A DNA stretch of 64,000 nt from Desulfurococcaceae archaeon (GTDB lineage Archaea; Thermoproteota; Thermoprotei_A; Sulfolobales; Desulfurococcaceae), in assembly GCA_028275705.1 (NCBI GenBank), contig JAPWUD010000004.1:22001-86000 (forward strand). Reading direction: 5' to 3'. Within the stretch, counting starts at the first letter, position 1. Every line of letters starts with the position of its first letter. Of the stretch, positions 1,949 to 18,608 are shown piece after piece. Below the pieces are notes generated by a model, which saw only the letters and a program-made list of their open reading frames with translations, was not told the DNA's origin and did not search any database. A program made the translations under genes and the position numbers.

Positions 1949-3181
1949 ATGAGTGACACGTGGAGGATTATAGAGGAGGAGCTGAGTAAACCCTCGTTGT
2001 TTAGGAGTAGAGAGAGCCTTATGCCGGAGCACTTGCCTGATAAGCTTCCACACAGGGAGAGTGAGATTAGGAGTCTTGTATCCTACTTCAAGCACCTTGT
2101 TCACGATCCCGGTTCGATTTCACAGAGGGTTTTAATTATTGGTGGAGTTGGTACTGGTAAAACTGCTTTGTCAAAGCTATTTGGGAAGATATTTACTAGG
2201 ACTGCGCGTGAGAAAGGTTATAATGTCTCCTATGTGCATGTTAATTGCCATAGAAACAGGACGCTGTATAATATAATATATGATGTTGCTAGGCAACTAG
2301 CACTACCCATTCCATCGAGGGGTTTGTCTGCTAAGGAGATGTTTGATGCACTCTTAGTATTCCTAGATGAACTCGACCAATACGTGATTGTGGCTTTAGA
2401 TGAATTCCACTACTTCGCGAGTTTATCTCAATCAGACGCTGTATACTTCCTCGCGAGGACTTACGAAGCGTATGAAGGATCTAAAAGGATAAACTTCGTA
2501 TTTATAGCATCAGATACGTCCAAACTAGCCTTCCTAGACCCCGTTACCGAGGGTTATCTACTGAGGCATGTAATTAAGCTACAGCCATATACATCTACAC
2601 AACTACACGATATATTGAAGTATAGGGCATCTATAGCTTTCTTCGAGGGTGTATACGATGACGAGGTATTGAAGGCTATTGCAGACTATGAGGGTGTAGA
2701 TAAGGGTGGTGGGGGGAATGCAAGGCACGCTCTCGAGGCACTACTCTTAGCTGGAGACCTCGCTGAGAAGGATGGAGCTAGGAGAATTACTATTGAACAC
2801 GTGAGGAGGTCTCTTGCAAGTCTTTCAAGAGAGATTGTTAGTGTTAGTGAGTTCATTAAACACAGCTCCCTCCACGAGCTACTAGTACTACTAGCTATTA
2901 TCAAGTTACTAAGGAGGAGTGGTGTTAGAGAAGTGAAAATAGGGGATGTAGAGGAGGAGTATAGGTCTATATGTGAGTACTATGGTGAGATACCTAGGAA
3001 GCACACGCAGATCTACGAGTACATACAGAGCCTATCGAGGGCTGGAGTTATATCTGCACACCCAAGTGGTAAGGGGCATAGGGGTAGGTCTACAATGGTA
3101 TCCGTAGATTATGGTCCACTAGACGTATTGGAGAACTATGTTGTTGAAACAATAAAGAAGAGGCGGGAGCTTGGCCTATAA
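1949..3181 (+). CDS. cdc6: Orc1/Cdc6 replication initiator (AAA+ ATPase with C-terminal winged helix)
   Basis: Walker A GGVGTGKTA, Walker B ALDEFHY, typical N-terminal LPHRESEI motif, 410 aa. Confidence 0.9.
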   Translation: MSDTWRIIEEELSKPSLFRSRESLMPEHLPDKLPHRESEIRSLVSYFKHLVHDPGSISQRVLIIGGVGTGKTALSKLFGKIFTRTAREKGYNVSYVHVNCHRNRTLYNIIYDVARQLALPIPSRGLSAKEMFDALLVFLDELDQYVIVALDEFHYFASLSQSDAVYFLARTYEAYEGSKRINFVFIASDTSKLAFLDPVTEGYLLRHVIKLQPYTSTQLHDILKYRASIAFFEGVYDDEVLKAIADYEGVDKGGGGNARHALEALLLAGDLAEKDGARRITIEHVRRSLASLSREIVSVSEFIKHSSLHELLVLLAIIKLLRRSGVREVKIGDVEEEYRSICEYYGEIPRKHTQIYEYIQSLSRAGVISAHPSGKGHRGRSTMVSVDYGPLDVLENYVVETIKKRRELGL

Positions 3182-3449
3182 GGGGAGACCTGAGGATAAG
3201 ATAATAGAGGCATTGTGTAGGCTCAGGGAGTGCAATCTAAATACTCTAAGAAGAGAGATTGGTTTAAGCTACTACACGCTCATTAGAGCACTAAACAGCC
3301 TCGTATTGAGAGGAATTGTAGTTGAGAAGAGAGTTGGAAGACTCAGAGTTTTCAGAATTACTGAAAACCAGTTGTCTGCTTGTAGGGGCATGCATCCTTC
3401 TGGGAGATACACTTCTTCACAAAAGACCTCGTTAAATACCTCTCAGTGA
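3171..3449 (+). CDS. Small winged-helix DNA-binding protein (hypothetical)
   Basis: 92-aa ORF that overlaps the cdc6 stop by 11 nt (TTG start). HTH-like segment LNTLRREIGLSYYTLIRALNSLVLRGIV followed by a wing-like RVGRLRVFRI. Confidence 0.45.
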   Translation: MAYKGRPEDKIIEALCRLRECNLNTLRREIGLSYYTLIRALNSLVLRGIVVEKRVGRLRVFRITENQLSACRGMHPSGRYTSSQKTSLNTSQ

Positions 3450-3696: not shown

Positions 3697-3799
3697 GGCC
3701 CGGGTAGCTCAGCCTGGATAGAGCGCCGGGCTGTGGATCCCTCGAGATGATGAGGGAGTAGAAACCCGGAGGTCCCGGGTTCAAATCCCGGCCCGGGCC
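3697..3799 (+). tRNA. tRNA-His (anticodon GTG) with encoded G-1 and a 27-nt intron (3737-3763) at the canonical 37/38 position
   Basis: Manual cloverleaf: G-1; acceptor GCCCGGG/CCCGGGC; D arm GCTC/GAGC; anticodon stem CCGGG/CCCGG; loop CT-GTG-G; T arm CCGGG-TTCAAAT-CCCGG; discriminator C pairs with G-1. The intron contains a TCCCTC/GAGGGA helix. Confidence 0.9.
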
Positions 3800-3823: not shown

Positions 3824-4321
3824 TTACTTCTTCTTTAGAGTTAAAAGGATGTTTCTAACATCTTCAACTCTCTGCTTTATCTCTACAATTATGCCTGGCG
3901 GTATATCTACATCGCTCTCCCATAGATCCCTGATAGTGTTCAGTAAGTTGAGTAAGCCTATATCTAGTAGGATCTTTACTGCTTTCTCGACTTTGCCGAG
4001 AAGCTTCTCAATGTACTCTACTCGTGACTCAACGTATTTCCTTCCCTTTGGAGTTAGAGCGTAGATTTTTCTTCTATTACCACTCTTAGAGGTGATGAAT
4101 CCCTCTCTCTCTAGTTCCCGTAGGGTAGGATATAGTATACCGCTACTTGGGGTGTAAACCCCAAGTAGTTCACTTATAAAGCTTCTAATAGCATAGCCAT
4201 GTGCTTCCTCGAGTCTGTATAAAGCATATAAGACTACGTCTCTGAATATTCCCTTAATACCTTTAATACTTAGCTCTAAACCCATAGATTTTGATCTCTC
4301 GCTCTTTCCCAGCTTTAACAC
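3824..4321 (-). CDS. PadR-family transcriptional regulator
   Basis: Winged-helix motif HGYAIRSFISELLGVYTPSSGILYPTLRELEREGFITS followed by a C-terminal coiled region. Divergent from the ABC operon. Confidence 0.8.
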   Translation of the reverse strand: MLKLGKSERSKSMGLELSIKGIKGIFRDVVLYALYRLEEAHGYAIRSFISELLGVYTPSSGILYPTLRELEREGFITSKSGNRRKIYALTPKGRKYVESRVEYIEKLLGKVEKAVKILLDIGLLNLLNTIRDLWESDVDIPPGIIVEIKQRVEDVRNILLTLKKK

Positions 4322-4355
4322 CCCCTTGTACTTATAAAGTATTTTAGGTTTTTAA

Positions 4356-4373
4356 CTATGTCTAAAGACATAG
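4356..4373. promoter_or_regulatory. 18-bp perfect palindrome CTATGTCT-AA-AGACATAG in the PadR/ABC divergent promoter region (candidate PadR operator)
   Basis: Read directly from the sequence. 8-bp arms are exact reverse complements. TATA-like CTTATAAAG lies at 4331-4339. Confidence 0.55.
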
Positions 4374-4386
4374 TCGACTAGAACTC

Positions 4387-5112
4387 GTGGTGCTTATGCG
4401 TGGTGAGGTATTGGTTTTAGAGAATGTAGTGAAGGTTTATAAGGCTAGTGGTGTTGAGACACAGGCCTTAAAAGGGATATCACTAAAGATCTACCGCGGG
4501 GACTTTATAGCAATAATGGGTCCATCGGGTTCTGGAAAAACAACTTTATTGAATATAATGGGGTTGCTGGATAAGCCAACGAGTGGTAGAGTATTAATTG
4601 ACGGTATTGAAGCATCTAGACTAAGTAGTAGTGAATTAGCTAGAATTAGGAATTATAAAATAGGTTTTGTATTCCAGTTCTTTAATTTAGTCAATAGGTT
4701 AACTGTACTAGAGAATATTGAAATGCCTTTAATACCGAGGGGTATACCAAGACCTAAAAGAGTTGAAATGGCCACTGTAGCACTTATAAAAGCTGCTGGA
4801 GACCCATCCTGGCTGCCCAAGAAGCCAAATCAACTATCAGGAGGCCAGCAACAAAGAGTAGCTATCGCAAGGGCTATTGTGGGTGAGCCTGAGATATTGT
4901 TAGCTGATGAACCCACAGGAAACATAGATACAGCTAGCTCGAAGATCGTGGTAAATACGTTCAAAAAACTAAATGAAGCTGGAGCCACAATAGTGGTTGT
5001 AACACATAACCCCGAGGTTGCTCACTGCACTCAGAAGATCTATATTATTAGAGATGGCTTGCTAATGAATATAATAAACCCGGATCCAAGTAAGTGCATT
5101 CTCAGTGCATAG
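4387..5112 (+). CDS. ABC transporter ATP-binding protein, MacB/LolD-type
   Basis: Walker A GPSGSGKTT, signature LSGGQQQRVAIARA, Walker B ILLADEPTGNID, H-loop VVTHN. Confidence 0.9.
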   Translation: MVLMRGEVLVLENVVKVYKASGVETQALKGISLKIYRGDFIAIMGPSGSGKTTLLNIMGLLDKPTSGRVLIDGIEASRLSSSELARIRNYKIGFVFQFFNLVNRLTVLENIEMPLIPRGIPRPKRVEMATVALIKAAGDPSWLPKKPNQLSGGQQQRVAIARAIVGEPEILLADEPTGNIDTASSKIVVNTFKKLNEAGATIVVVTHNPEVAHCTQKIYIIRDGLLMNIINPDPSKCILSA

Positions 5113-5128
5113 AATGTTTTTAAGGGGG

Positions 5129-5146
5129 ATATGTCTGTAGACATAT
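5129..5146. promoter_or_regulatory. Second operator-like palindrome ATATGTCT-GT-AGACATAT immediately upstream of the giant surface-protein gene
   Basis: Perfect 8-bp arms. Shares the core TATGTCT-NN-AGACATA with 4356-4373. Confidence 0.5.
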
Positions 5147-5162
5147 TATTGGCGAGTTAAAC

Positions 5163-8100
5163 ATGAATAGACTCTACAGAGCTCTAATGGGAGTTTTAAT
5201 CACACTATACGTAGTTATACCATTATTCCTCAGCTTGGTTACTGCTGAGGCTCCATTATTTACACTCATTAATTACAATTACAAATCTAGTGCTGGAGAG
5301 GAGGAGATATATCCGGGGAGTAGAGACGTTGCATTAACAGTCAATGTAAAGTACATTGGAGACTCCCCAGTATATGTGTCAGCTGGGTGTATTCAACTCC
5401 CCGCGGGATTTACACCTAGTAGGGGGTATAGTGCTTGTACACCACCACAGACTCCTAATGGTACAACATACGATATAATACACACTAATGACGTAGTAGT
5501 ATTTAACTACCACTTAGATGTTAGTACTGATGTAGCGCCTGGATCATACGTATTAAGCTTAATAATATACTATAGGATGCAGAATGCATCAGGCAGTGAG
5601 GTTTTAAACAATATAGTGATAGAGGTCTCTAATTACCCAGAGCTCTCGCTCACGGTGACAAATTGGTATTGGAGCCCAGCGGGCTATCCTGGTAGTGATG
5701 GAGTCTACCTCTACGTTACACTGAGAAATACTGGGGGTTCAAGGATTCTAAATGCACGTAGTGAAGCAAGGTTTCCCGAGGATGTATTCTCGCCATCCAC
5801 TATTAGTTTTCAAATAGCTAATATTGGTGAAAATGAGTATGCAACTATTGGGTTAGGCCCTATATCAATATATCCATCTGCAAATCCCAATATAACGTAC
5901 CAAGTTCAACTAGATCTAAACGCGACTATGAGTACTAATGATGGCGTTCAATACTATGCCCAGGGTTCAATAGTCTTCAGCGTCTCTTTAACCCCTCCAC
6001 CTGTAATTCACTTAGAGGTAGTTGATTATGGATTAGAGACTCCGAGGCCTGTTGAGGGCTTGAGGCAAGCTAGATTCTACATGATGATTGTTAACAAAGA
6101 CTTCAAAACTATTAGGAGTGTTACAGCGTATTATTACATAGCTACATCAGGTGCGGTATTCGTCAATGGATCATCCTCCTCAGTATCCATATTCGAGGCT
6201 ACACTGGGATACGGAAATGCAGCATCCATATACTCAGAGCCCATAGTACTTGGTAGTGTACACCAATTAGTCATTAAGGTATCTCTACTTATTTTTGGAG
6301 ACGATAATGGAGCAGAGTTCTGGAGCACTATAAACTATGAATTTGCAGTGAGCATTGAAGAGCCTTTGGTAGACCTCGAAGCGGTTAATGTATACTGGTC
6401 TAGCGGGGGTGTTTACCCTGGCAGTGAAAATGCTGTTTTAAACACAGTGTTGTTGAACAATGACATTGTAGATGTAAGGGATGCAGTAGTATCAATTACA
6501 CTTCCAGAGGGGTTTTACCCAAGGTGCTTAACAGTTAGCAATGTATTAGTTCAAAGGGGCTCAATGACTACTGTATCATTTACTGGGATTTCAATAAGTA
6601 ATAGTACAATACCCGGAGAATACCCCGCGATCTTGGTAATTCAGGGTGTGGCATGGGATTCATCTACAAACACTTACTATGCATTTACAGCAAACTACAC
6701 GGTAACGGTTAATGTCAGTAAAACCCCGGTGTTTAAGATACTCACGGTTGCCACTAGTGGCTGGATTGGTGGAAGAGCATACACTATTAGTGTTAACGCT
6801 GCTTTCTACGCATACCTCCAGGTTACGGCTCCAGGTTATACTATACGTGGATTAAAGGTCAAGGCTAATCTCCCAGATCAACTCTTATTCACAAATGGCG
6901 AAAAATACAGTACTGTAACCCTTGGAAACATCTATAGATACGGTGACTTCATATATGTAGAGTTCGCAGGTGTAGATGTAGTCACCGATAAGAGTGGACC
7001 TGTCCCCGTAGTATTAGAGGTAGAGGGCTTAGCGTCGATTGGTGGGGATTACTGGTTTAGAGAATACCACACTATACTACTACCCATAATAGAGCCTGGT
7101 TTGAACTTAACACTAGTAGATGCGTCCTGGAGTGTAAACCCAGTTAGCAGTGAGGCTAGTGAACTAGGAGTGAGTATTACAATGCAGTCGACATCTATAG
7201 ACACCATTACTTCCATTACAGCTCGTTTAACCCTAACCAATGCAGTGTATAGTAGTGGCAGGGAGGAGGCCATTGTTAGTGTACAGAGGCCGGTGAACTA
7301 TGGCGAGGTCTTTACACTGGACTTTACAGGGGTGAATATAAATGCCACGGCTTTGAATGCTGTACTCGAAGTATACGCGGTTTTATCTACTGGTAGGTCT
7401 ATGTATTATAGGGCTGTGAGAGTGTATAATGTCTCCATGAATACTCTCACAGAGTTGAATGCCTTTAGGATTATTGGAGTACACACGATGATTGCTGGTT
7501 CTTACACGCCGCTACTTCCATCTAGTAGAGGGGTATCAATAGTGATCGAGCTAGCCAATAGCAAGCCATACCAAGTATCCTGGATTCAAGTTAATGCAAC
7601 TGCTCCAAGCGATGTAAAAATAAATGATATCTCAGGTACGTGTGTAAATGGTTTAACTCCCGCGGGAACATGCACAATCACTCTAAATGTCGATGTATCG
7701 CCAAATGCTACACCGGGATCTAGGAGTATTGAATTACTACTAAAGTACGCTGTTGCCACAGCACAAGGAGTCTCATTGTTTTCTGAGAGACACGTAGTGG
7801 ACTTTGCTATTGCAGATACTAAGTACTATGAGCCGGAATTAAAGCTTGTTTCAATGTACTGGGGTGTTCAAGCACCAATGAGGGTACTCGTAAGTCAGAG
7901 GAATGTACCATTAAGCATAGTGATCATCAATACAGGTTACTACTCATTAGATGGAGTTTACGTGTATGTTAAGCCTTTGAATAACACTGTACTCATGGTT
8001 ACTGACTCCTCAATGTGTACTCCGAGGTTGACAACCGGGGCTTCCTGTAGTGTAACACTATATACGGATCTATCCATGGTTGAGAAGCCTGGAGAGTTAT

Positions 8101-9839
8101 TCTTCGAGGTTTCAGTAAACTACTTGTTCACGGTATTCAATACACTTATGGAGGGATCACAGGAGTTTACAGTTAAGCTGAGAGTAGATGAGTCTGCAAG
8201 TGGCTCTGGATTACTACTTGTTGATTCATCATGGGCTAACAACTGGCCTGTATATCCATTGACAGAGAACGCCACACTTCAAGTGATCTTGGCTAATAAA
8301 TGGCCTTATAGAATATCCGGCGTACAACTAGAACTAGTACTCCCACAGGGCTTCCACTCGAAGACAGGTAATGTAGCTCAAGCATACATACCCGGCCCTA
8401 TTAACAGCCTCCAAGAGCTAACAGCAGAGTTCACTATCAATATTGAGGGTGTTGAACCTGGGATATATACTGCTAAGCTGAGTGCTTCATACATTGTTGA
8501 GACTGGAACCCCGAATACACGTGTATTTGAGGATTATAATGTCTCACTTATAGTAAACAACCCATACTCTAGTATTCAGCCTATTATTGTAGATTGGATT
8601 GGCAGAGCGCCAGAGCCTCCGGAGTATGGTGCTTTACTAATGGTTGCTTTGAGGAATAATTTGAATCCAAGTATGAAGGGCCCGGTGTTAGAGTTGGAGT
8701 TGCCTGAGGGATTCCTCGATGCAGCATCTAATACATCACACATGAAGGTTATTGCTTCAAGTACAAATATACTCCAGCAAATGCAAATTCAACCACTTGG
8801 ATTACAGACTGCGGGGTTTAATCCACAGTTGATACAAGAGCTACTATCACAGGTTCAAACTGGTGGAGCTAGTGGTTTCACATATGGGGATGTACTCTAC
8901 TTCTACTTAAAGCTAAACATAGTAACGGGGAGAAGAGGTGTGTTTGTATTTAGTGGTAATTTGAGTTTTATTGACCACTGGAATAATAAAAGAGTTATTC
9001 CAATATCCTTCAATGTCAGCCTGCTTGGTTCATCGAAAATTATTGAAGTCTATGCACCAACATCGCTGAGGGTTGTGAATGGAACAAGCAATCTCAGTAT
9101 TAAAGTCTTGAACAACGGCTCTGCACCACTATACAATATCTACGTTTACCTCATACCATATGGTGGAATGCTCATTCCACAGGATGCAGTAAAGTATATT
9201 GATGAACTACCACCGGGTGAAATAGTGCTCGTCAACTACACGCTTATATATAATCCATTTGCTGTCGCCACTGGCGGAGTTCAGGCTTACCTAAGGTACA
9301 TGACCGCGCCATTCAATCTCGCTATTTCCTATAGAGATGTTTATGGCTATACAGGATACTATAACACGAGTATAGCTGTACTAGTTGAGCCATTTATAGA
9401 TTTAGTATTGTCTAGTACGAAGGCAACGTTAAGTGGTGGTACATTGAGTATATCTGGCGTTATACTGAATTATGGTATAGCAACAGCCAGGAGTATTGTT
9501 GTAAAGGCTGTATACATGGATAAATCAACTGAGACCCTGGTCGGAGACCTAGATCCAGCATCGCAGACGGCTTTTAGACTAGAGATGAGTGTGGGTTCTG
9601 GTGGTGGGGATAAGGTGTTGTTGATTGTAAGTTATAGGGATGAGTATGGTAGAGTTGAGGAATTAAACTACACGCTTAGTATTAATAGAGTAGAATCTAT
9701 TGCTACAACAACTCCAAAGCAGAGTGAGGGATTGTTGCCGGGTTACGCCACAGTGTCTATATCTGTAGTTGTGTTTCTCGCTGTTGTTGCATTATTAATA
9801 TACAGGTATTTGAAGAAGCATGGTTTGAAAACACCATAG
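5163..9839 (+). CDS. Giant (1558 aa) exported repeat protein, CARDB / COG1361 'S-layer domain'-like, with a C-terminal TM anchor
   Basis: N-terminal hydrophobic signal/TM, C-terminal TM (VSISVVVFLAVVALLIYRYLKKH). At least 8 beta-rich modules of about 110-130 aa with recurring W..x..YPGS / LPEGF-type motifs. Many N-x-S/T sequons. Confidence 0.7.
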   Translation: MNRLYRALMGVLITLYVVIPLFLSLVTAEAPLFTLINYNYKSSAGEEEIYPGSRDVALTVNVKYIGDSPVYVSAGCIQLPAGFTPSRGYSACTPPQTPNGTTYDIIHTNDVVVFNYHLDVSTDVAPGSYVLSLIIYYRMQNASGSEVLNNIVIEVSNYPELSLTVTNWYWSPAGYPGSDGVYLYVTLRNTGGSRILNARSEARFPEDVFSPSTISFQIANIGENEYATIGLGPISIYPSANPNITYQVQLDLNATMSTNDGVQYYAQGSIVFSVSLTPPPVIHLEVVDYGLETPRPVEGLRQARFYMMIVNKDFKTIRSVTAYYYIATSGAVFVNGSSSSVSIFEATLGYGNAASIYSEPIVLGSVHQLVIKVSLLIFGDDNGAEFWSTINYEFAVSIEEPLVDLEAVNVYWSSGGVYPGSENAVLNTVLLNNDIVDVRDAVVSITLPEGFYPRCLTVSNVLVQRGSMTTVSFTGISISNSTIPGEYPAILVIQGVAWDSSTNTYYAFTANYTVTVNVSKTPVFKILTVATSGWIGGRAYTISVNAAFYAYLQVTAPGYTIRGLKVKANLPDQLLFTNGEKYSTVTLGNIYRYGDFIYVEFAGVDVVTDKSGPVPVVLEVEGLASIGGDYWFREYHTILLPIIEPGLNLTLVDASWSVNPVSSEASELGVSITMQSTSIDTITSITARLTLTNAVYSSGREEAIVSVQRPVNYGEVFTLDFTGVNINATALNAVLEVYAVLSTGRSMYYRAVRVYNVSMNTLTELNAFRIIGVHTMIAGSYTPLLPSSRGVSIVIELANSKPYQVSWIQVNATAPSDVKINDISGTCVNGLTPAGTCTITLNVDVSPNATPGSRSIELLLKYAVATAQGVSLFSERHVVDFAIADTKYYEPELKLVSMYWGVQAPMRVLVSQRNVPLSIVIINTGYYSLDGVYVYVKPLNNTVLMVTDSSMCTPRLTTGASCSVTLYTDLSMVEKPGELFFEVSVNYLFTVFNTLMEGSQEFTVKLRVDESASGSGLLLVDSSWANNWPVYPLTENATLQVILANKWPYRISGVQLELVLPQGFHSKTGNVAQAYIPGPINSLQELTAEFTINIEGVEPGIYTAKLSASYIVETGTPNTRVFEDYNVSLIVNNPYSSIQPIIVDWIGRAPEPPEYGALLMVALRNNLNPSMKGPVLELELPEGFLDAASNTSHMKVIASSTNILQQMQIQPLGLQTAGFNPQLIQELLSQVQTGGASGFTYGDVLYFYLKLNIVTGRRGVFVFSGNLSFIDHWNNKRVIPISFNVSLLGSSKIIEVYAPTSLRVVNGTSNLSIKVLNNGSAPLYNIYVYLIPYGGMLIPQDAVKYIDELPPGEIVLVNYTLIYNPFAVATGGVQAYLRYMTAPFNLAISYRDVYGYTGYYNTSIAVLVEPFIDLVLSSTKATLSGGTLSISGVILNYGIATARSIVVKAVYMDKSTETLVGDLDPASQTAFRLEMSVGSGGGDKVLLIVSYRDEYGRVEELNYTLSINRVESIATTTPKQSEGLLPGYATVSISVVVFLAVVALLIYRYLKKHGLKTP

Positions 9840-9851
9840 AGGGGCTTAGAG

Positions 9852-11075
9852 GTGTTTTTACAGTTTTTCCTCGATATATTGAGAATGGCCATTAAAGTCC
9901 TCACTGAGAGGAGAACTCGTGCAGCGTTGACTATTGCTGGAATCGCTCTCGGTCCCTTCGCACTGGTAATGATCTCTAGTGTTGTTGATGGCTATGGAGA
10001 ATACATCGTATCTCAGGTGGAGGGGCTTGGTCAAAACACAATTGTCCTTTTCCCAAGCGGGGACTACAAATTCACTGAGAGTGATTTAAATAGTATTAGG
10101 TCAATGCCCGGTGTGAAGCGTGCCGAGCCATTTTACAGTATTCAGGGGCAGGTTAAGGTTGGGTCTGAGAATAAAGTTGTCTTTGTCTACGCTATACCGG
10201 TAGATTTGATCTTTGAATCCATGAAGGGGTTGGAGGTAGAGAAGGGCAGTATTCCATCGGAGAGTGAGTATTTAAGGGCCCTTGTGGGCCATAAAGTGGC
10301 CTATAGTGATGATGGTGGAGTAGTGTACGATATTGGAGACGTAGTTACAATTACGTATTTAAAGCCTGGTGGTGGCAGTAGTGAGGTTAGAAGAATCTCC
10401 GTGGTTGTGGCGGGTGTAATGAAGGAGTTTGGTGGTGCATTTATACTGAGTCCAGACACTATGGTGATACTGCCTCTGGAGGCTGGGCAGAAGGTGCTTG
10501 GATTGAGTTCTTGGAGTGGCATATATATTCTAGCTGAGAGTAGTGATGTAGTCTCAGATGTTGTGAGGGAACTTCAGTCTCGTTATAGAGGTGTAGCGGA
10601 TATAATATCATTTCAGAGTATTGCAAATATTATTAACTCTGTCATTGGAGCGGTAAACTTCATTTCATTCGCTGCATCTCTCTCAGCCTTTGCTGTTGCT
10701 GTAGCTGGTGTAGCTTCCACAATGATTACATCCGTTGTTGAGAGGACAAGGGAGATCGGGGTTTTAAAGGCACTCGGGTTTAAGGATGGAGAGGTTTTAC
10801 TAATGATCTTAGCGGAGAGCATTGTTATGAGTATTATTGGTGGATTAATAGGTATATTACTCGGTGTAGTGGGTGCACAGGCTCTCGCGTCAAGAGGCTT
10901 TGTCATAAGTATATCGCAGCAGAATACAATAGTTATCACTGCACCACCCAAGGTGACATCATTCAATATCCTTAGAGCTACTGCTCTAACACTACTTGTA
11001 GGGGTTGCTGGTGGATTATTCCCAGCATACCGTGCAGCTAGAATACCTCCAGCTGTTGCATTGAGGTATGAATAG
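9852..11075 (+). CDS. ABC transporter permease, FtsX/MacB family
   Basis: 407 aa. N-terminal TM, large extracytoplasmic domain, then a C-terminal 3-TM FtsX domain (ERTREIGVLKALGF motif). Starts 13 nt after the giant gene. Confidence 0.85.
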   Translation: MFLQFFLDILRMAIKVLTERRTRAALTIAGIALGPFALVMISSVVDGYGEYIVSQVEGLGQNTIVLFPSGDYKFTESDLNSIRSMPGVKRAEPFYSIQGQVKVGSENKVVFVYAIPVDLIFESMKGLEVEKGSIPSESEYLRALVGHKVAYSDDGGVVYDIGDVVTITYLKPGGGSSEVRRISVVVAGVMKEFGGAFILSPDTMVILPLEAGQKVLGLSSWSGIYILAESSDVVSDVVRELQSRYRGVADIISFQSIANIINSVIGAVNFISFAASLSAFAVAVAGVASTMITSVVERTREIGVLKALGFKDGEVLLMILAESIVMSIIGGLIGILLGVVGAQALASRGFVISISQQNTIVITAPPKVTSFNILRATALTLLVGVAGGLFPAYRAARIPPAVALRYE

Positions 11076-11080
11076 TCTAT

Positions 11081-11336
11081 CTATAACTTTAACTCTATGA
11101 ATGACTGCTTCATAGTATACTTTAAACCCGGGTCCTCCCATGCCGGCTTCTCCACTATGAATAACTACTCGTGGTATATTAATAAAAAGTCTCTTTCTCT
11201 TAATCTACTCCACAATTCACGCGTAGTCTTCATTCTATGCTGGATCTTGACAACCTCCTCTCTCAGCATGAACCCAGCGTCTAGGAGTACGAGTAGAGCA
11301 TAGTGTGTTAATCGAGCATAGTGCTTCTTTACAACC
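11081..11336 (-). pseudogene. Gene remnant of unknown family (N-terminally truncated, one in-frame stop)
   Basis: The minus-strand frame reads SVVKKHYARLTHYALLVLLDAGFMLREEVVKIQHRMKTTRELWSRLRERDFLLIYHE*LFIVEKPAWEDPGLKYTMKQSFIELKL. It has no start codon and begins directly at the hairpin motif. Confidence 0.25.
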
Positions 11337-11367
11337 GAAAGCCTTGCTTTTTAAGGCGGGGAGGAGG
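11337..11367 (+). repeat. Short conserved hairpin motif GAAAGCCTYGC-TTTTTAA-GGCGGGG(AGGAGG), copy 1 of 3
   Basis: Similar sequences at 22650-22675 (same orientation) and 34064-34093 (reverse). 6-7 bp G/C stem with a T-rich loop. Confidence 0.4.
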
Positions 11368-11700
11368 ATGGAACTACTTCTCTACTTGTATTTATTGTTC
11401 TCAAGGAGAGTTTAATTCTCACAGGCAAGTTTCTCGTCTCTAAGAAGAGCCATAGCTTTCTCCCTTGAAATCGGAATTAATTGCACCTTCATTAAACCAC
11501 GTACTTCCTTAATTCTCATATACCCTATACGTATACGCTTCAATACAAGCCCTAAGTGGAATAAGCGCAATAGTGTTATATAAAGCAATTAATAAGTGTA
11601 AATAATAGTCCTAGTCCTGTATTATTTAAGACACGATAGATTTAATTCATGCACTGCTGTACTATAATGTCGTGTTTGGTGGGTGCGAGGAGAAAAAGAG

Positions 11701-12969
11701 TTATAGAGATTGGTCTGATTTAGCCGGATCTACCACGTGGCCTACGAATAGTATAGCTTTACTATCGCGGTCTCTAAGGATATAAATGAATGGCTTGTCT
11801 ACTACGACCTCTATGTTGTACACGGGTGCGGATGTAAGTACAAAGATCGCTGTTACAGCGGCTGCCTCAGTCCCCTTCTCATTTACCTTTATCACGGCTT
11901 TTTGAATTACCTTGTCAACCCATATACTGCCTCGAGCTACGCGCGCCATTCTCGTTAAATCGGCTATTCCAGGTTGGAATACTTCGTGTACCCCCATCTC
12001 CCATAAAACATCATTGAGAACTTTATTAAATGATACGTTGAATTTAGGCATTACGAGGTGTGCTCTGAGTATTGGACTAGCATTATCTATGTTTTCAAGG
12101 GCCTTTGTAACTAATTCCCTAACGTCTCCCACAGCCTCTTTGAAGTCTCTAGGCATTATGATCACCATTGATAAACTAGTGTCCTTGTAGGGGATCTCCA
12201 CAGCGATGTACTCGCTAGTATTCACTACTCTCAAGTGATCTCCTTCAACGTCCATACCATAAACATATATCCACTCATTTCCATTCCAGAATCTGATTTT
12301 TCCACATGGCTTGAACTCCTTTAACCAATCTGCCTTGAAGTAGATTGCTGAAACCAACACTGCAACTGTGTCGGGCGGCACTAGATCCCTGCTTAAGAGG
12401 TTCTTTATTAACCCATTTGTCTTCTCCTCAACCCATCTATTAACACTCTCAACTAACTCATCAATACTAGTAAAGTACTCTACGTATCCATTGAAGCACT
12501 GTTTAACCCTCGACACGTAATCATCCCTGAATGGAAATCCCTCCCTCAGCCACGCGCCATTAGCTACGTAGAGTGCGGCAGTGTTGTTTCTACCTATTGG
12601 AAGCATCGAGATCAATTCTCGGTATGCACTACAAGCATCTCCATTATCCAAGCCCATAACTTTACCAAGCTCCTCTCTAGTAGAGGTGTTTGTACCCTCA
12701 TATAGTATTGTTAGAGCAACGTAGATGTTGAAGGGTGAAACAACTAGGTTTTCACTGGAGTGATCTCTCAATAGTAAACCATATAGGTTGAGAGTGAAAT
12801 TATTCGCTTTTTCAACAAGTTGAGGTAGTGTTACTTCCTCTGCTTCAACTACACCACTCGGTGTATGTTGCTGAGGGGTTTTTCTCAGTAGGAATGGTAT
12901 AGAGACAACTGATAGGACAACTAATGCAACCACTAGAACTACAACAAACCAATACTTCAACGCCACCAC
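11701..12969 (-). CDS. Serpin (serine protease inhibitor) with N-terminal membrane anchor
   Basis: Hinge / reactive-centre loop EKGTEAAAVTAIFVLTSAP followed by VVDKPFIYILRD. Serpin-length core (422 aa). N-terminal TM VVVLVVALVVLSVVSIPFLL. Confidence 0.9.
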   Translation of the reverse strand: MVALKYWFVVVLVVALVVLSVVSIPFLLRKTPQQHTPSGVVEAEEVTLPQLVEKANNFTLNLYGLLLRDHSSENLVVSPFNIYVALTILYEGTNTSTREELGKVMGLDNGDACSAYRELISMLPIGRNNTAALYVANGAWLREGFPFRDDYVSRVKQCFNGYVEYFTSIDELVESVNRWVEEKTNGLIKNLLSRDLVPPDTVAVLVSAIYFKADWLKEFKPCGKIRFWNGNEWIYVYGMDVEGDHLRVVNTSEYIAVEIPYKDTSLSMVIIMPRDFKEAVGDVRELVTKALENIDNASPILRAHLVMPKFNVSFNKVLNDVLWEMGVHEVFQPGIADLTRMARVARGSIWVDKVIQKAVIKVNEKGTEAAAVTAIFVLTSAPVYNIEVVVDKPFIYILRDRDSKAILFVGHVVDPAKSDQSL

Positions 12970-13873: not shown

Positions 13874-14397
13874 AATCCCACTTTAATTCCGCTATTAATA
13901 AATAAATAAAAAATAATTATAAATAAAGCTAAGAAAGTTATTGACTTCACTTAGAATATTGTACTACTTACTACTACATTTAACTTTCCCGCAGAATTTG
14001 TTTTGCATGGAATTCTAGTATAATTTGCTCTACTTATTTTAACGCCTGAGTAGTATAAAAAGCAAATGGCAACTCCATGTCATAGTTAACTTCTCCAATT
14101 TCAGCTCTCAACTTGTTGAGAACGATATTAAATTCGATTAATAAAGTACATTAATTCAATTCTAAGTATTCTGCTCTCAATGGGAAAATATGAAACCATA
14201 TTTCGACTTCATCGTTTCTATCGATTAACGATTGAACATATTTCCATAAAGCACTTTAGCGGTTATTTCGTATTTTTCTCTTAAGCTTTTAATAGTGGTA
14301 GTTTCAGCGTTTAAATGGGGTACTCATACGTAAAATCCCGTGAAAACCTTTAACTATGTGCAACTACTGTTTACAACTTTATCCCCGTAACTTTTAG

Positions 14398-14423
14398 CTT
14401 CTTAAAATATCTTCTTAAAATAT
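14398..14423 (+). repeat. Tandem duplication 2 x 13 bp (CTTCTTAAAATAT) upstream of the liv-type operon
   Basis: Exact tandem repeat read from the sequence, 65-90 nt upstream of the GTG at 14488. Each unit contains a TATA-like core. Confidence 0.5.
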
Positions 14424-14487
14424 AGTTGTAAGATTTAAATACCCCATAAGGTATTATATCTCTAAAAGTGCTGGAGGCGATGATTCC

Positions 14488-15918
14488 GTGAATAAAACTA
14501 CTGCGATCCTTGTTGTTATCGCGATAGTAGTTGGCATAGTAGGCTTTATCGCGGGATATAATCTTTCACCTATTAGAGTGCAGACTTTAACTACGACTAT
14601 AGTCACCACTACTACCACTACTTTAACTATAACTATTCCCACAACTCCTACACCTACTCCACCTACAACACCACCTATAACTACTCCAACATCCCCTAGG
14701 TGCAACTTCACTCCTCCCGATAAAATAGTTATTGGACTATCTATTAGCCTATCTGGATCGTATGCCTTGACAGGACAGCAAGGCTTATGGGGTATGAGTG
14801 CCGCTGTTAACTATATAAATAATATCAAAGGTGGGATCGACCTATGTGGTAAAAAAGTGAAAATAGAGCTTAAATACTATGATGATCAATCGAGCAAAGA
14901 CCTCGTGCCTAGCTTGTACGAAAGACTAATTACAGTAGATAAAGTAGACATAGTTCTAGGCCCATATGGATCTCCGTTAACTTTGACAGCTGCTCCTGTA
15001 GCAGAAAAATATAGTAAAGTAATTATCAGCTGGATGGCCAATAGTGATAAATTAATCCAGCAGGGATTTAAATACTTCGTTATGGTTCCAGCACTAGCTA
15101 GTACTCTTTGGAAAGCCGCTCTTGAAATGGTTAAACAATTAGATCCAGGCGCGGCTATAGCTATACTTCATAAAGAAGACGAGTTCAATACTATGGTAGC
15201 TAATGGCGCAAAGAATTATTCATCTCAGCTCGGTCTAAAGATCGTGTATTTTAGATCTTATCCAACCGATATATCTGATTTCACACCTATATTTTACGAG
15301 CTAGCTGCTGCCAAGCCAGATGTAATACTCATATGTTCCCACGAGAAGGATGGAATGCTCGCGATGCAACAATTGATACAAATGAAGGTTAACGCTAAAT
15401 TAATAGGGATAGCGGTCGCTGCAAGTCTTCCAGACTTCTACAATAACTTTAAGAACATGGCTGAAGGACTGATTGACGGAACGCACTGGACTCCATATGC
15501 TAAGTGGTCTCCAGAAGTCGCTAAGCAACTGGGATACGAGTGGATAGGTCCTACGCAAGAAGAATTTCTTAGCTTATTCCACGAAGTAGCAGGTCCCGAT
15601 AAATCTCCATCATATCATGCCGCCGCAGGGTTTGCGGCAATATTAATTGTCGCGAGAGCCATAGAGACAGCACAGTCGCTAGAACAAAGCGTACTTAGAC
15701 AAACATTTAACAACTTAAAAGTCATGACAATATATGGGCCATTCCAAATAGATCCAGCAACAGGAGCGCAAAAAGGGCATACCATCGTAGTCGGACAGTG
15801 GCAAGCCGGAAAGTTCAATATTGTATGGCCACCTGGAGCGGCCAATTCTAAACCAGTTTATCCAATACCTACATGGGACGAGAAAGCTGGAGGAGCTTTA
15901 GCGACGCCAAAGCCTTAA
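14488..15918 (+). CDS. livJ: Branched-chain amino-acid-type ABC substrate-binding protein (LivJ/K family), N-terminal TM plus Thr/Pro-rich linker
   Basis: 476 aa. TM helix, then TTTIVTTTTTTLTITIPTTPTPTPPTTPPITTPTSP, then a type-I periplasmic-binding fold pattern (IGLSISLSGSYALTGQQ). Confidence 0.8.
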   Translation: MNKTTAILVVIAIVVGIVGFIAGYNLSPIRVQTLTTTIVTTTTTTLTITIPTTPTPTPPTTPPITTPTSPRCNFTPPDKIVIGLSISLSGSYALTGQQGLWGMSAAVNYINNIKGGIDLCGKKVKIELKYYDDQSSKDLVPSLYERLITVDKVDIVLGPYGSPLTLTAAPVAEKYSKVIISWMANSDKLIQQGFKYFVMVPALASTLWKAALEMVKQLDPGAAIAILHKEDEFNTMVANGAKNYSSQLGLKIVYFRSYPTDISDFTPIFYELAAAKPDVILICSHEKDGMLAMQQLIQMKVNAKLIGIAVAASLPDFYNNFKNMAEGLIDGTHWTPYAKWSPEVAKQLGYEWIGPTQEEFLSLFHEVAGPDKSPSYHAAAGFAAILIVARAIETAQSLEQSVLRQTFNNLKVMTIYGPFQIDPATGAQKGHTIVVGQWQAGKFNIVWPPGAANSKPVYPIPTWDEKAGGALATPKP

Positions 15919-15978
15919 CTTTCGAGTTTGTTTTTAATTATTCCTTTCATTCCCTTGAGGTCATCTAACTATATTACA

Positions 15979-16764
15979 ATGTATGATCTTGGTGAAGGAT
16001 TCTTGTATACTACTGGAAGAGTTGTAGATGCTCAAAGGATTGGTCAAAGATTTTGTAGGCTAAAGCTTAGGCTTGGCAGAGATCTAGGCGAGGTTTCACC
16101 GTTTCAATTCGTCATGGCTGGATTACCAGGCGAGTTCGAAATCCCGTTGACTGTTTCAATGTACAATCGCGAAAAACTAATATTGGACTTATTTTTCAAA
16201 GTTAGGGAATACAGCACAGAGAAACTTTGCGGCAGCATAAAGTACATATCTCTCCGTGGATTCTATGGTAAGAACAGGTTAAATCTTGTAATAGGGGATA
16301 AAGTATTGTACATAACTGAAGATCTCGGTTTCTCGTCGTTGCCTCTTTTAATTTCTTGGATTAAGAAAAATAGTAAAGTTCTCGATGTAATTATGGTTTT
16401 TGAGAACGAAAGTGAAATTTTTGAAGTAGCAAAGCTCATCGACATGGATTTTAGTGGACGCATTGTTCAGTGTATAAGGAGCGATCTCGAAGAAAGACTA
16501 GACTTAGTTACTAAGTCCACCACTAGCAACACTTGGAAAACTATTTTAGCAGCAGGTGGAAGAGAGTTGCTGAAAAAAGCCTGTGAACTGGCATATGAAC
16601 TAGGAGCTGAAGGTGTAATAGCGCCTTATACTCGAATTAAATGCGGTATTGGGGCGTGTGGATACTGCATTATACCAAGAACAAAATACTTGTTATGTGT
16701 AGATGGGCCGATCTTCAAATGTAGTGAACTAGCAAGTTATTTGGGGCTTGAACATGGAGATTGA
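15979..16764 (+). CDS. pyrK: Dihydroorotate dehydrogenase electron-transfer subunit-like protein (PyrK family, 2Fe-2S)
   Basis: C-terminal cluster motif CGIGACGYC...LCVDGPIF is typical of PyrK. Start chosen at ATG 15979; the ORF is open from TTG 15928. Confidence 0.65.
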   Translation: MYDLGEGFLYTTGRVVDAQRIGQRFCRLKLRLGRDLGEVSPFQFVMAGLPGEFEIPLTVSMYNREKLILDLFFKVREYSTEKLCGSIKYISLRGFYGKNRLNLVIGDKVLYITEDLGFSSLPLLISWIKKNSKVLDVIMVFENESEIFEVAKLIDMDFSGRIVQCIRSDLEERLDLVTKSTTSNTWKTILAAGGRELLKKACELAYELGAEGVIAPYTRIKCGIGACGYCIIPRTKYLLCVDGPIFKCSELASYLGLEHGD

Positions 16765-17671
16765 TTTATCCATAGAGGTGTTAGGGCTTCGCTTAATTCA
16801 TCCGTTAATGAATGCTAGCGGCATATTAGGACACATGCCGGAACATGTTGATATCTTAAAGAGTTATGGCGTATCAGCTATTGTAACCAAGACATTTACT
16901 CTTAAACCGAGGGAGGGGCATAAAGAGCCTATTATAGTGGAGTTGCCGAATGGGGGGATTCTTAACAGTATGGGTTTACCCAACCCTGGCATAATTGGAT
17001 TAGAGAGGATTATTAAAAGTGCAAAAAGCAGGAACATTCCAGTAATTGTTAGCGTGGGAGGAAGCAGTATTAAGGAGTTCAGCGAGGTTGCCATAAAGGC
17101 TGAAGAAGCAGGTGCCAACGCAATTGAGTTAAATCTAAGTTGTCCTCACACAAAAAGCTATGGCTTAGAGCTGGGTCAAGACCCATTAATAGTGTATGAA
17201 GTAGTCAGGGAAGTATCGGGGTCAATAAAAGTTCCCGTAGTAGCTAAACTAGGATTAACGGATAGGATCATAGAGATCGCCGGCAAAGCTCTAGAAGCCG
17301 GCGCTAGAGCATTAACTCTAATAAATACTATAAAAGCGATGTATATTGACATATTCGCAGCAAAGCCCTTTTTAAGCAATATATATGGTGGTCTTTCGGG
17401 ACCGCCAATACATCCAATAGCGGTGAGAGTAGTGTACGATGTTTATAGAGAATATGAAGGCATAGAGATAATAGCAGCTGGGGGAGCTATAGACTGGCAT
17501 AGTGTAGCAGAGTTCCTGTTGGCAGGAGCAAAAGCTGTGCAACTAGGAACAGCGCTAATTCTCAAAAGAGAAAAAGCCATACCGGAAATTTTAAAAGGCT
17601 TATATGTGTGGCTCGGTGAATTAAATATCAAAAGCCTTAAGGAGGTTGTTGGTTTAGCTAATAGGAAATAG
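16754..17671 (+). CDS. pyrD: Dihydroorotate dehydrogenase catalytic subunit (class 1)
   Basis: Motifs NASG, LNLSCPH (catalytic Cys), GGLSGPPI, AAGGA. Overlaps the pyrK stop. Confidence 0.85.
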   Translation: MEIDLSIEVLGLRLIHPLMNASGILGHMPEHVDILKSYGVSAIVTKTFTLKPREGHKEPIIVELPNGGILNSMGLPNPGIIGLERIIKSAKSRNIPVIVSVGGSSIKEFSEVAIKAEEAGANAIELNLSCPHTKSYGLELGQDPLIVYEVVREVSGSIKVPVVAKLGLTDRIIEIAGKALEAGARALTLINTIKAMYIDIFAAKPFLSNIYGGLSGPPIHPIAVRVVYDVYREYEGIEIIAAGGAIDWHSVAEFLLAGAKAVQLGTALILKREKAIPEILKGLYVWLGELNIKSLKEVVGLANRK

Positions 17672-17723
17672 TTTTAATACTTTTAAGGTAATGCCCTTCA
17701 TAGTAAATTTATAGAGGGGTATC

Positions 17724-18608
17724 GTGGTGTACTCTTACATACTCGTTAACATAGTATCTGGAGTTATGATAGGATTTCTATACGCGCTAGTTGGATTATC
17801 TCTCACTTTTATATTTGGAATATTGCAGTTTGTAAACTCTGCACATGGGCAACTAATGATGATTGGAGCATATATTACGTATTGGCTGTTCGTACTGTAT
17901 GGTTATCCACCACTAATATCCCTATTTTTAACGTCTCTAATTGGTCTTATACTGGGCATCGCTCTCTATACACTGGTTGTAAAAAGGTTAGTTGGTCTAC
18001 CAGCTCTCTACTCTCTTTCAGCAGCGTTTGCACTAGGCATATTTATACAAGAACTCGCTAAGCTTTTGTGGGGTCCTACATATAGAGGTTTTCTATATGA
18101 CGTAGGCTCTCTCCACGTCTTTGGTTACATTATTCCAGCAACTAGGGTCTTGGGATCGGCAATTAGCGCTTTCCTTGTGTTTTTAACCTACTTCTACCTC
18201 TATAGAACTAAAAGCGGCAGGGCTGTTAGAAGCATCATTCAAAATCCCGAGGGTGCTATACTATGCGGTGTCGATATATACAAGTTTTACTTGACCGCTC
18301 TAGCGATGGGTATAGCATTAAATATTATAAGTGGGTGTCTACTAACGCTCTATGTTTCTAGCGGTATAAATCCATACATGGGGGACATCTATACAAATTT
18401 AGCCTTCATGGTAGCCGTTACCGGGGGTTTAGGTGCACCCGAGGGCTCCTTACTCGCGGGCTTAATATACGGCTTGTTCGAAAATCTACTTCCAGTATTT
18501 CTCGGTAATATACCCAATCTCAGCGTTTATCCAGCTACGAGGTTTATAATGTTCGTAGTTCTAATGATAGTTCTACTCGTTAAACCTCGAGGGCTCTTGG
18601 GGAGGTGA
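17724..18608 (+). CDS. livH: Branched-chain amino-acid ABC permease (LivH family)
   Basis: 294-aa polytopic membrane protein with a typical LivH N-terminus (LVNIVSGVMIGFLYALVGLSLTFIFG). Confidence 0.85.
   Translation: MVYSYILVNIVSGVMIGFLYALVGLSLTFIFGILQFVNSAHGQLMMIGAYITYWLFVLYGYPPLISLFLTSLIGLILGIALYTLVVKRLVGLPALYSLSAAFALGIFIQELAKLLWGPTYRGFLYDVGSLHVFGYIIPATRVLGSAISAFLVFLTYFYLYRTKSGRAVRSIIQNPEGAILCGVDIYKFYLTALAMGIALNIISGCLLTLYVSSGINPYMGDIYTNLAFMVAVTGGLGAPEGSLLAGLIYGLFENLLPVFLGNIPNLSVYPATRFIMFVVLMIVLLVKPRGLLGR

Follow-up and report, generated by a model that had tools for sequence, protein, structure and literature searches.

In a 64-kb window from a Desulfurococcaceae archaeon (contig JAPWUD010000004.1; the window is the whole stretch of 64,000 nucleotides analysed, and all positions below are counted on it), the gene for a 1558-aa repeat protein, here called the giant protein, lies between the gene for an ATP-binding cassette (ABC) ATPase and the gene for a MacB-type permease, and a PadR-family regulator gene is divergent from the ATPase gene. 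We observed that across Thermoproteota lineages the giant and permease genes are invariably joined in a single unit of transcription and translation. The interpretation that we prefer, and hold with evenly balanced confidence, is that the locus encodes a PadR-controlled type VII (MacB-like) ABC mechanotransmitter, of which the giant protein, a stalk of immunoglobulin (Ig)-like modules, would be the stoichiometric extracytoplasmic partner.

All four genes were found to be intact in the open reading frame (ORF) map of the window. The padR gene (165 aa; 3824..4321, minus strand) diverges from the ATPase gene of MacB/LolD/FtsE type (241 aa; 4387..5112, plus strand), the true start of which is probably the ATG at 4396. 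These are followed on the plus strand by the uninterrupted ORF of the giant protein (5163..9839) and by the permease gene (407 aa; 9852..11075), with 12 nt between the giant stop and the permease start. An earlier note on this DNA, written from the sequence letters, had placed the giant gene between the ATPase and permease genes, and the ORF map confirms this arrangement with the same coordinates.

Bacterial MacB/FtsX-type ABC systems are understood as mechanotransmitters that always need an extracytoplasmic partner (MacA/TolC, LolA, EnvC). Archaea lack both an outer membrane and peptidoglycan, and to our knowledge next to nothing has been established about what this class does in them; MJ0796, which has served as a structural model for the ATPase, is the only well-known archaeal representative of which we are aware.

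Linkage of the giant and permease genes across archaea

Related loci were collected by a permease-alignment scan of one genome per GTDB species, which gave 80 loci; the counts reported here cover 85. The lineages recovered by the scan were Desulfurococcales/Ignisphaera, 'Sulfolobales' metagenome-assembled genomes (MAGs), Zestosphaera, Pyrodictiaceae, Nezhaarchaeales and Bathyarchaeia. The permease, with 52-79% identity, is more conserved than the giant protein. At all 85 loci, which represent at least five archaeal groups, the ORF that immediately precedes the permease gene on its strand encodes a homologue of the giant (E <=1e-127). When the flanking ORFs within 10 kb of the permease were compared all against all, only four recurrent families emerged, namely the giant (85 loci), the permease (85), the ATPase (66) and PadR (28); the remaining flanking genes reflect lineage-specific synteny. 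In 22 loci the stop codon of the giant runs 4 nt into the start of the permease gene, and in most of the others the two genes are no more than 22 nt apart. Translational coupling of this kind would lead to roughly equimolar synthesis of the giant and the permease, unlike that of an abundant surface-layer cargo.

The linkage extends to much more distant proteins. A hidden Markov model (HMM) search of 1.84 billion cluster representatives returned 110 proteins at E <=1e-30 and 440 at E <=1e-3, and the weaker matches include proteins of 530-1250 aa in which the similarity is limited to the last two modules and the transmembrane (TM) segment. Five of these distant relatives were viewed in their gene context. 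In four of them (661-1245 aa), which include a protein of Ca. Caldarchaeum and another of a Thaumarchaeota/Nitrososphaerota-labelled MAG, the gene for the Ig/TM protein again follows the ATPase gene and precedes that of the MacB_PCD/FtsX permease, and the genes overlap; the fifth, which lies at a contig end, adjoins an ABC ATPase gene. Gene order survives down to relatives with E values of about 1e-21. The earlier proposal that the three products are used together is thus upheld by linkage at 85 of 85 loci and in four distant relatives. That note had also named a lack of conserved linkage, or an interrupted ORF, as evidence that would count against its proposal; when both were tested, we found the linkage at every locus and an uninterrupted ORF with a dN/dS of 0.19. 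Full-text literature searches turned up no description of such an archaeal three-gene module; it looks undescribed, which suggests an envelope machine of a new kind.

In 12 loci of the Ignisphaera group, genes for an M28 peptidase, a MoxR-type AAA ATPase and a VWA protein were observed 3' of the permease (for example at 13961-18012 in locus L001 and 13954-18043 in L002). MoxR/VWA neighbourhoods recall the 'secretion' neighbourhoods described previously (PMC5898192). We considered these genes as a part of the module and dropped the idea, as none of them occurs in the window or in most of the family.

The ATPase and the permease

The ATPase was identified as an ABC_tran protein by Pfam (116 bits), and all the expected motifs were found, including the Walker A sequence GPSGSGKT, the LSGG signature, the Walker B sequence ILLADEP with its catalytic Glu, and the H-loop THN. 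In NCBIfam it comes closest to DarD, LolD, MacB and FtsE without reaching the equivalog cut-off of any of them, and its nearest solved structures are MJ0796, Spr0694, LolD and MacB.

The permease carries a MacB_PCD domain (aa 25-243, 78 bits) and an FtsX domain (aa 274-400, 64 bits). Four hydrophobic segments (23-47, ~263-297, 312-347 and 373-391) give a topology of TM1, an extracytoplasmic MacB_PCD domain of ~215 aa, and TM2-4, which make up the FtsX domain. The nearest NCBIfam models, LolC/E and MacB, are far below their equivalog cut-offs. A profile of the permease aligns end to end with the MacB structures 5gko and 5lil (E 7e-22 and 3e-21), while its FtsX part aligns with Spr0695 (5xu1), YtrF and LolC/E/F; the top PDB sequence match of the profile is Spr0695 (E 1.5e-23).

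Judged by their sequences, the ATPase and the permease carry all the hallmarks of the type VII (MacB/FtsX-type) ABC class. MacB-type transporters have no transmembrane substrate path; their ATP cycle is converted into motion of the extracytoplasmic domain, and what this motion acts upon is either a partner or a substrate located at the outer membrane face (PMC8277102). By analogy with its class, the archaeal permease would also work by mechanotransmission, without a transmembrane substrate path.

Architecture of the giant protein

The giant protein begins with a predicted signal sequence (aa 1-29; 5163..5249, plus strand) which consists of the n-region MNRLYR, a hydrophobic core and AEA, and which is probably cleaved. 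Next comes a distal 'head' of two beta-sandwich modules (aa 30-282; 5250..6008), containing YPGS motifs and the conserved Cys76 and Cys92, and modelled by AlphaFold2 (AF2) with a pLDDT of about 90. A variable stalk of seven beta-sandwich modules (aa 283-1135; 6009..8567), recognised from internal repeats and from whole-module indels in relatives, leads to a membrane-proximal core of three modules (aa 1136-1514; 8568..9704) that is kept in all family members. The last segment (aa 1515-1558 and the stop codon; 9705..9839) holds a Thr-rich linker, the TM anchor and the cytoplasmic tail YRYLKKH. Hydropathy analysis identified an N-terminal hydrophobic segment at aa 4-30 and a C-terminal TM segment at aa ~1523-1551, which is followed by the basic tail YRYLKKHGLKTP; in the AF2 model a helix occupies aa 1526-1554. 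The signal/TM segment and the C-terminal anchor that the earlier note had predicted are therefore borne out.

Both AF2 models (pLDDT 90.3 for aa 28-655 and 81.9 for aa 645-1558) are all beta-sandwich, except for the TM helix and a Gln-rich helical insert at ~aa 1203-1233 in the first module of the membrane-proximal core. As modelled, about 12 Ig-like beta-sandwich modules make up the giant, a type I membrane protein. The 'at least 8' beta-rich modules of the earlier note hold as far as the repeats are concerned, since profiles of 120-column slices from a 19-sequence alignment match other slices with E values of 1e-12 to 1e-5, giving a repeat period of ~120 aa; the module count in the AF2 models is nearer 12 than 8. 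The W..YPGS and LPEGF motifs singled out in that note are present in modest numbers (YPGS three times, LP.GF four times and W..YPG twice). The many N-glycosylation sequons that it reported were found as well: there are 25, where the composition would lead one to expect 15.4, and a comparable excess is seen in homologues. Its CARDB/COG1361-like label proved marginal. With Pfam, NPCBM_assoc/NEW3 reached 28.6 bits against a cut-off of 24.4 on the whole giant and a sub-threshold 17.8 bits on an isolated module (module 7); CARDB was sub-threshold on the last module (21.5 against 22.7 bits), and faint CARDB/NEW3 matches were seen in distant relatives. The protein contains seven cysteines, and three cysteine pairs are conserved (76/92, 827/837 and 952/962).

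A search of all PDB chain sequences with a 19-member profile of the giant gave nothing significant, the best match being an antibody chain (E 0.28). Matches of the models in Foldseek were to hydin, alpha-2-macroglobulins, complement, mastigoneme and integrin legs, and no specialised domain was found among them. All named relatives of the giant are annotated as 'hypothetical protein' or as generic domain-containing proteins.

Conservation and modular variation of the giant protein

Compared with a 96%-identical relative, the giant gene has a dN/dS of 0.19, which is similar to the values of 0.12-0.18 for neighbouring genes; the lowest value in the protein, 0.12, belongs to aa 1136-1514. The giant is under purifying selection and therefore is a functional gene. 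Full-length homologues of ~1565-1580 aa, down to 37% identity, are found in Ignisphaera and Desulfurococcaceae MAGs, and across orders the identity is 32-61% over ~1500 aa.

The length of family members ranges from ~660 to 1800 aa. Profile mapping demonstrated that aa ~1-282 and aa ~1136-1558 are kept throughout the members of 830-1680 aa, and that stalk modules are lost or duplicated as whole units, with boundaries at 283, 399, 650, 771, 895, 1013 and 1136. The last two modules are common to distant relatives of 530-800 aa. The least conserved part of the protein is the signal sequence (36% column identity). At the other end, F1538-L1539 of the TM anchor are invariant or near-invariant in alignments of 19 and 77 sequences from several orders, and the tail has the consensus IYRYLKxH. 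Conserved residues in a TM helix and in a cytoplasmic tail suggest that these parts touch a particular protein, for which the permease or the ATPase would be the simplest choice.

PadR and candidate operators

The regulator matches the PadR family PF03551 (61.2 bits against a cut-off of 27), and its length of 165 aa fits PadR subfamily 1, the members of which have ~180 aa (PMC3506622). The canonical operator of PadR regulators, which typically repress genes for detoxification, efflux or resistance, is an ATGT/ACAT inverted repeat (PMC3506622). The palindrome ATGTCTnnAGACAT occurs exactly twice in the 64 kb, against 0.23 occurrences expected even with one mismatch. Candidate operator 1, ATGTCTAAAGACAT (4358..4371), lies between padR and the ATPase gene and is shared by their divergent promoters, and candidate operator 2, ATGTCTGTAGACAT (5131..5144; extended form ATATGTCTGTAGACATAT at 5129-5146), lies in the giant/permease promoter. 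From reading the sequence, we assign putative TATA-like boxes to the padR promoter (TTTATAA; 4332..4338, minus strand), the ATPase promoter (TTTTTAA; 4349..4355, plus strand) and a separate giant/permease promoter (TTTTTAA; 5117..5123, plus strand); the padR mRNA is probably leaderless. Both palindromes are situated 2-7 nt downstream of a TTTTTAA box. Their motif, ATGT-N6-ACAT, has a spacer of 6 nt as against the canonical 8-10, and it was found in both promoters and nowhere else in the 64 kb.

The same elements could be followed in relatives. The operator 1 palindrome is kept in loci L006, L009, L010, L013, L014, L019 and L091. Both spacers contain TGTCTnnAGACA in L004, L009, L010, L013, L019 and L091, and TATCTnnAGATA in L024, L026, L027, L050 and L058. 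Mixed sites are found in L014, which has TGTCTnnAGACA in front of its ATPase gene but the mixed form TATCTGCAGACA in front of its giant gene, and in L005, which has one mixed site with TATCTnnAGATA. In these relatives the half-site shifts from GTCT to ATCT in both promoters together. A degenerate pattern gave 46 matches in 1.39 Mb of the relatives, of which 31 are within ~160 nt upstream of giant or ATPase genes. The palindromes are likely to be PadR operators. PadR would then repress both the ATPase promoter, which the divergent padR shares, and a second promoter that serves the giant and the permease; since two candidate PadR-type operators lie just downstream of TATA-like boxes, the module is probably repressed until a ligand is present. 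A scan for sigma-70 promoters and terminators gave counts equal to those of shuffled sequences and is uninformative for an archaeon.

A conserved two-hairpin element of ~70 nt (GGGGTATTCGACCCC ... CCTCGGTTCCCGAGG) was noticed between padR and the operator in L001, L009, L013 and L019 (in L009, for example, at ~4275-4420). It is not present in this window, and an Rfam search of the hairpin-rich spacer of related loci, including this element, returned nothing significant. It may be a small RNA or the remnant of a mobile element.

Neighbouring genes

Upstream of the module, at 1949-3449 on the plus strand, are a gene for an Orc1/Cdc6 replication initiator (NF001623, 602 bits) and an overlapping gene for a 92-aa ArsR/SmtB-like winged helix-turn-helix protein. 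The same pair is found upstream of the module in L091, the 96%-identical relative, and a replication origin may lie near the Orc1/Cdc6 gene. Together with the names carried by homologues, the Orc1/Cdc6 gene shows that the window belongs to an Ignisphaera-like crenarchaeon, an archaeon of hot springs. Just past the 3' end of padR, on the opposite strand, Rfam reports a tRNA match of 102 nt (3698-3799, plus strand; 56.6 bits). ARAGORN made no tRNA call at this position; the match is probably an intron-containing archaeal tRNA.

On the other side, a serpin gene (422 aa with an N-terminal hydrophobic segment; 11701-12969, minus strand; Pfam Serpin, 278 bits) is convergent with the permease gene. 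The ~620 nt between them (11076-11700) are without an ORF of at least 80 aa, and Rfam gave nothing significant on this stretch, an HgcC-like match at 11303-11383 being far below threshold (18 bits against 50). None of the 85 related loci contains a serpin gene, and the adjacency is therefore incidental. The serpin, together with the MG-domain fold matches, had suggested an alpha-2-macroglobulin-like protease trap. We rejected this candidate, as the CxEQ motif was not found among the seven cysteines of the giant, its models are without the helical thioester domain, and the 85 loci have no serpin. An anti-phage defence system was likewise rejected, PADLOC having given only generic ABC-ATPase and LolE-TM matches.

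Comparison with known systems

The Streptococcus pneumoniae system Spr0693-0694-0695 (5xu1) and MacAB-TolC resemble the module in that the LolD/MacB-type ATPase is a protein of its own, distinct from a 4-TM permease that carries MacB_PCD as an extracytoplasmic domain. In MacAB-type systems a third, single-pass membrane protein is likewise encoded in the same operon, and control by a small repressor is plausible. However, the third component of MacAB is an HlyD-type protein with an N-terminal TM segment, whereas the giant has a C-terminal TM segment and ~12 Ig-like modules, and neither the whole giant nor any single module matched HlyD, biotin-lipoyl or MFP families in Pfam and NCBIfam. MacAB-TolC also depends on TolC and an outer membrane, neither of which is present here, the host being an S-layered archaeon.

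FtsEX with EnvC, PcsB or RipC is similar in that a type VII ABC system acts by mechanotransmission on a dedicated, elongated extracytoplasmic partner and carries no substrate through the membrane. The proteins described here are far below the cut-offs of its models (189 against 265 (264.85) bits for FtsE, and 20-23 against 225-250 bits for the FtsX models), and the FtsEX partner is a secreted coiled-coil protein, in contrast to the integral-membrane, all-beta Ig array found here, which has no linked hydrolase. LolCDE shares a single gene for the nucleotide-binding domain and action at the outer leaflet, and the permease matches the LolC/E model end to end. Its scores are again below equivalog cut-offs (LolD 217 against 308 (307.75) bits; lolCE 83 against 362 bits), and LolCDE has two permease paralogues in a context of LolA/LolB and lipoproteins, whereas the window has one permease gene and lacks this context. 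On sequence grounds, the ABC part belongs to the MacB/FtsX/LolCDE class, while LolCDE, FtsEX and MacAB with HlyD each fail in at least one defining feature.

In Euryarchaeota, Makarova et al. described SalXY-type ABC loci near membrane or 'S-layer' genes, and proposed a role in defence or membrane remodelling (PMC4158269, PMC5898192). These are similar in that archaeal MacB/SalXY-type ABC genes lie near predicted surface or membrane proteins, but they occur in Archaeoglobi, Methanococci and Thermococci around small membrane proteins of arCOG01996/COG1300, and neither a sandwiched Ig-giant nor PadR operators are described for them. The LmrR-LmrCD and bcPadR2-ABC systems (PMC3506622) share a PadR repressor beside an ABC system and an ATGT/ACAT repeat in the promoters. 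Bacterial PadR sites have spacers of 8-10, whereas here the spacer is 6 nt and the operator is placed just downstream of the TATA box of an archaeal promoter.

Proposed function and alternatives

Because the adjacency is obligate, the coupling translational, the TM helix and tail conserved and the membrane-proximal core the most constrained part, it is reasonable to regard the giant as the subunit that receives the motion of the permease, and the sequence evidence suggests a stoichiometric subunit rather than a cargo. The C-terminal TM helix and YRYLK tail of the giant would pack against the permease, and the membrane-proximal modules (aa 1136-1514) would sit on its extracytoplasmic domain. 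The Ig stalk, with a module number that differs by lineage, would fix how far from the membrane the two-module head (aa 30-282) is held, which would be at the S-layer or past it. As ATP is bound and hydrolysed on the cytoplasmic side, the stalk helices and PCD of the permease would move, as in MacB, LolCDE and FtsEX, and the motion of the PCD would then be passed on to its giant partner. The module would stay repressed until PadR binds its ligand. By analogy with bacterial PadR regulons, the most likely output would be that the cell, on induction, clears a harmful peptide or amphiphilic compound from its pseudo-periplasm or from the outer face of the membrane, with the giant in the adaptor role that MacA or Spr0693 has in bacteria.

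Several of our observations weigh against this interpretation. Some loci have a displaced ATPase gene, or none at all within 10 kb. We observed it to have moved in L011, L012, L016, L002, L038, L050 and L058, either downstream on the opposite strand together with padR, or upstream on the opposite strand; since the giant-permease pair is intact where the ATPase has moved, this pair is the invariant core. PadR is adjacent in 28 of the 85 loci and the palindrome is found at ~17 of 73, so inducible control may be lineage-specific. The AF2 models have no defined inter-domain arrangement (pTM 0.40 and 0.51), and Foldseek searches with both of them gave generic Ig/MG-domain arrays at low TM-scores. 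A flexible Ig chain is not an obvious conduit and does not resemble the HlyD-type adaptors, and the neighbouring genes give no clue to a substrate.

Two other explanations deserve attention. The giant could be a cargo, that is, a surface-layer, sheath or adhesin protein which the MacB-type ABC system handles, for example by extracting or repositioning its TM anchor, much as LolCDE extracts the anchors of lipoproteins, or by helping it to insert into the S-layer. We consider this unlikely, although a signal peptide, an Ig-like array, a Thr-rich linker, a C-terminal TM segment and an excess of sequons make up the architecture of many archaeal surface glycoproteins, MacB-type transporters do act on outer-face substrates (PMC8277102), and the bacterial S-layer protein SbsB is among the fold matches (rank 46 of the Foldseek top 50, and the only S-layer protein there). 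The coupling of the giant to the permease under a shared and apparently repressed promoter would be unexpected for a major, highly expressed envelope protein. The sequence conservation over ~1500 aa, with a conserved TM helix and tail, is unusual for S-layer proteins, and the 19-member profile detected no homology to a solved archaeal S-layer protein, or to any other solved protein, in the PDB. Tight coupling and the conserved TM anchor thus favour a partner subunit over a cargo.

The second explanation is an FtsEX-like regulator, in which no substrate is moved and an ATP-driven conformational change switches the giant; the giant would then turn on, or put in place, an extracytoplasmic activity at a distance, for instance a protease, remodelling of the S-layer or adhesion between cells. 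The transporter class is that of FtsEX, a conserved head at a lineage-specific distance fits positioning at the S-layer, and in the 12 Ignisphaera-group loci the permease is followed by the M28 peptidase, MoxR ATPase and VWA genes. This explanation too seems improbable to us. A conformational signal passing through 7-12 loosely joined Ig modules is mechanically implausible unless the protein is oligomeric, no effector gene is conserved across the family (the M28/MoxR/VWA genes are not in the window), and control by PadR points to stress or detoxification more than to housekeeping morphogenesis. A merely fortuitous adjacency of functionally unrelated giant and ABC genes, for which we can list nothing, is highly improbable given that it recurs at 85 of 85 loci in otherwise unrelated contexts, with stop/start overlap, a candidate operator common to both promoters and an order kept in distant relatives.

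Significance

If the giant is indeed the partner of the ABC system, the module gives one archaeal subfamily of the MacB/FtsX-type ABC class a concrete, conserved and obligatory partner. It also offers handles for experiments in the variable-length stalk with its invariant ends, the conserved TM helix and tail, and the two predicted PadR operators. A bolder and more doubtful proposal, which we put forward tentatively, is that an ABC motor permanently coupled to an Ig-repeat stalk, the module number of which is tuned to the width of the pseudo-periplasm, constitutes a new class of archaeal envelope-spanning machine. If true, the energy of ATP would be carried to events at or beyond the S-layer by a counterpart, in S-layered cells, of MacAB-TolC or FtsEX-EnvC, and this machine would be conserved in Desulfurococcales, Nezhaarchaeales, Bathyarchaeia, Caldarchaeales and Nitrososphaerota-labelled MAGs. 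Should the length of the stalk track the distance from membrane to S-layer, the module would reveal the way in which archaea drive what happens in the pseudo-periplasm.

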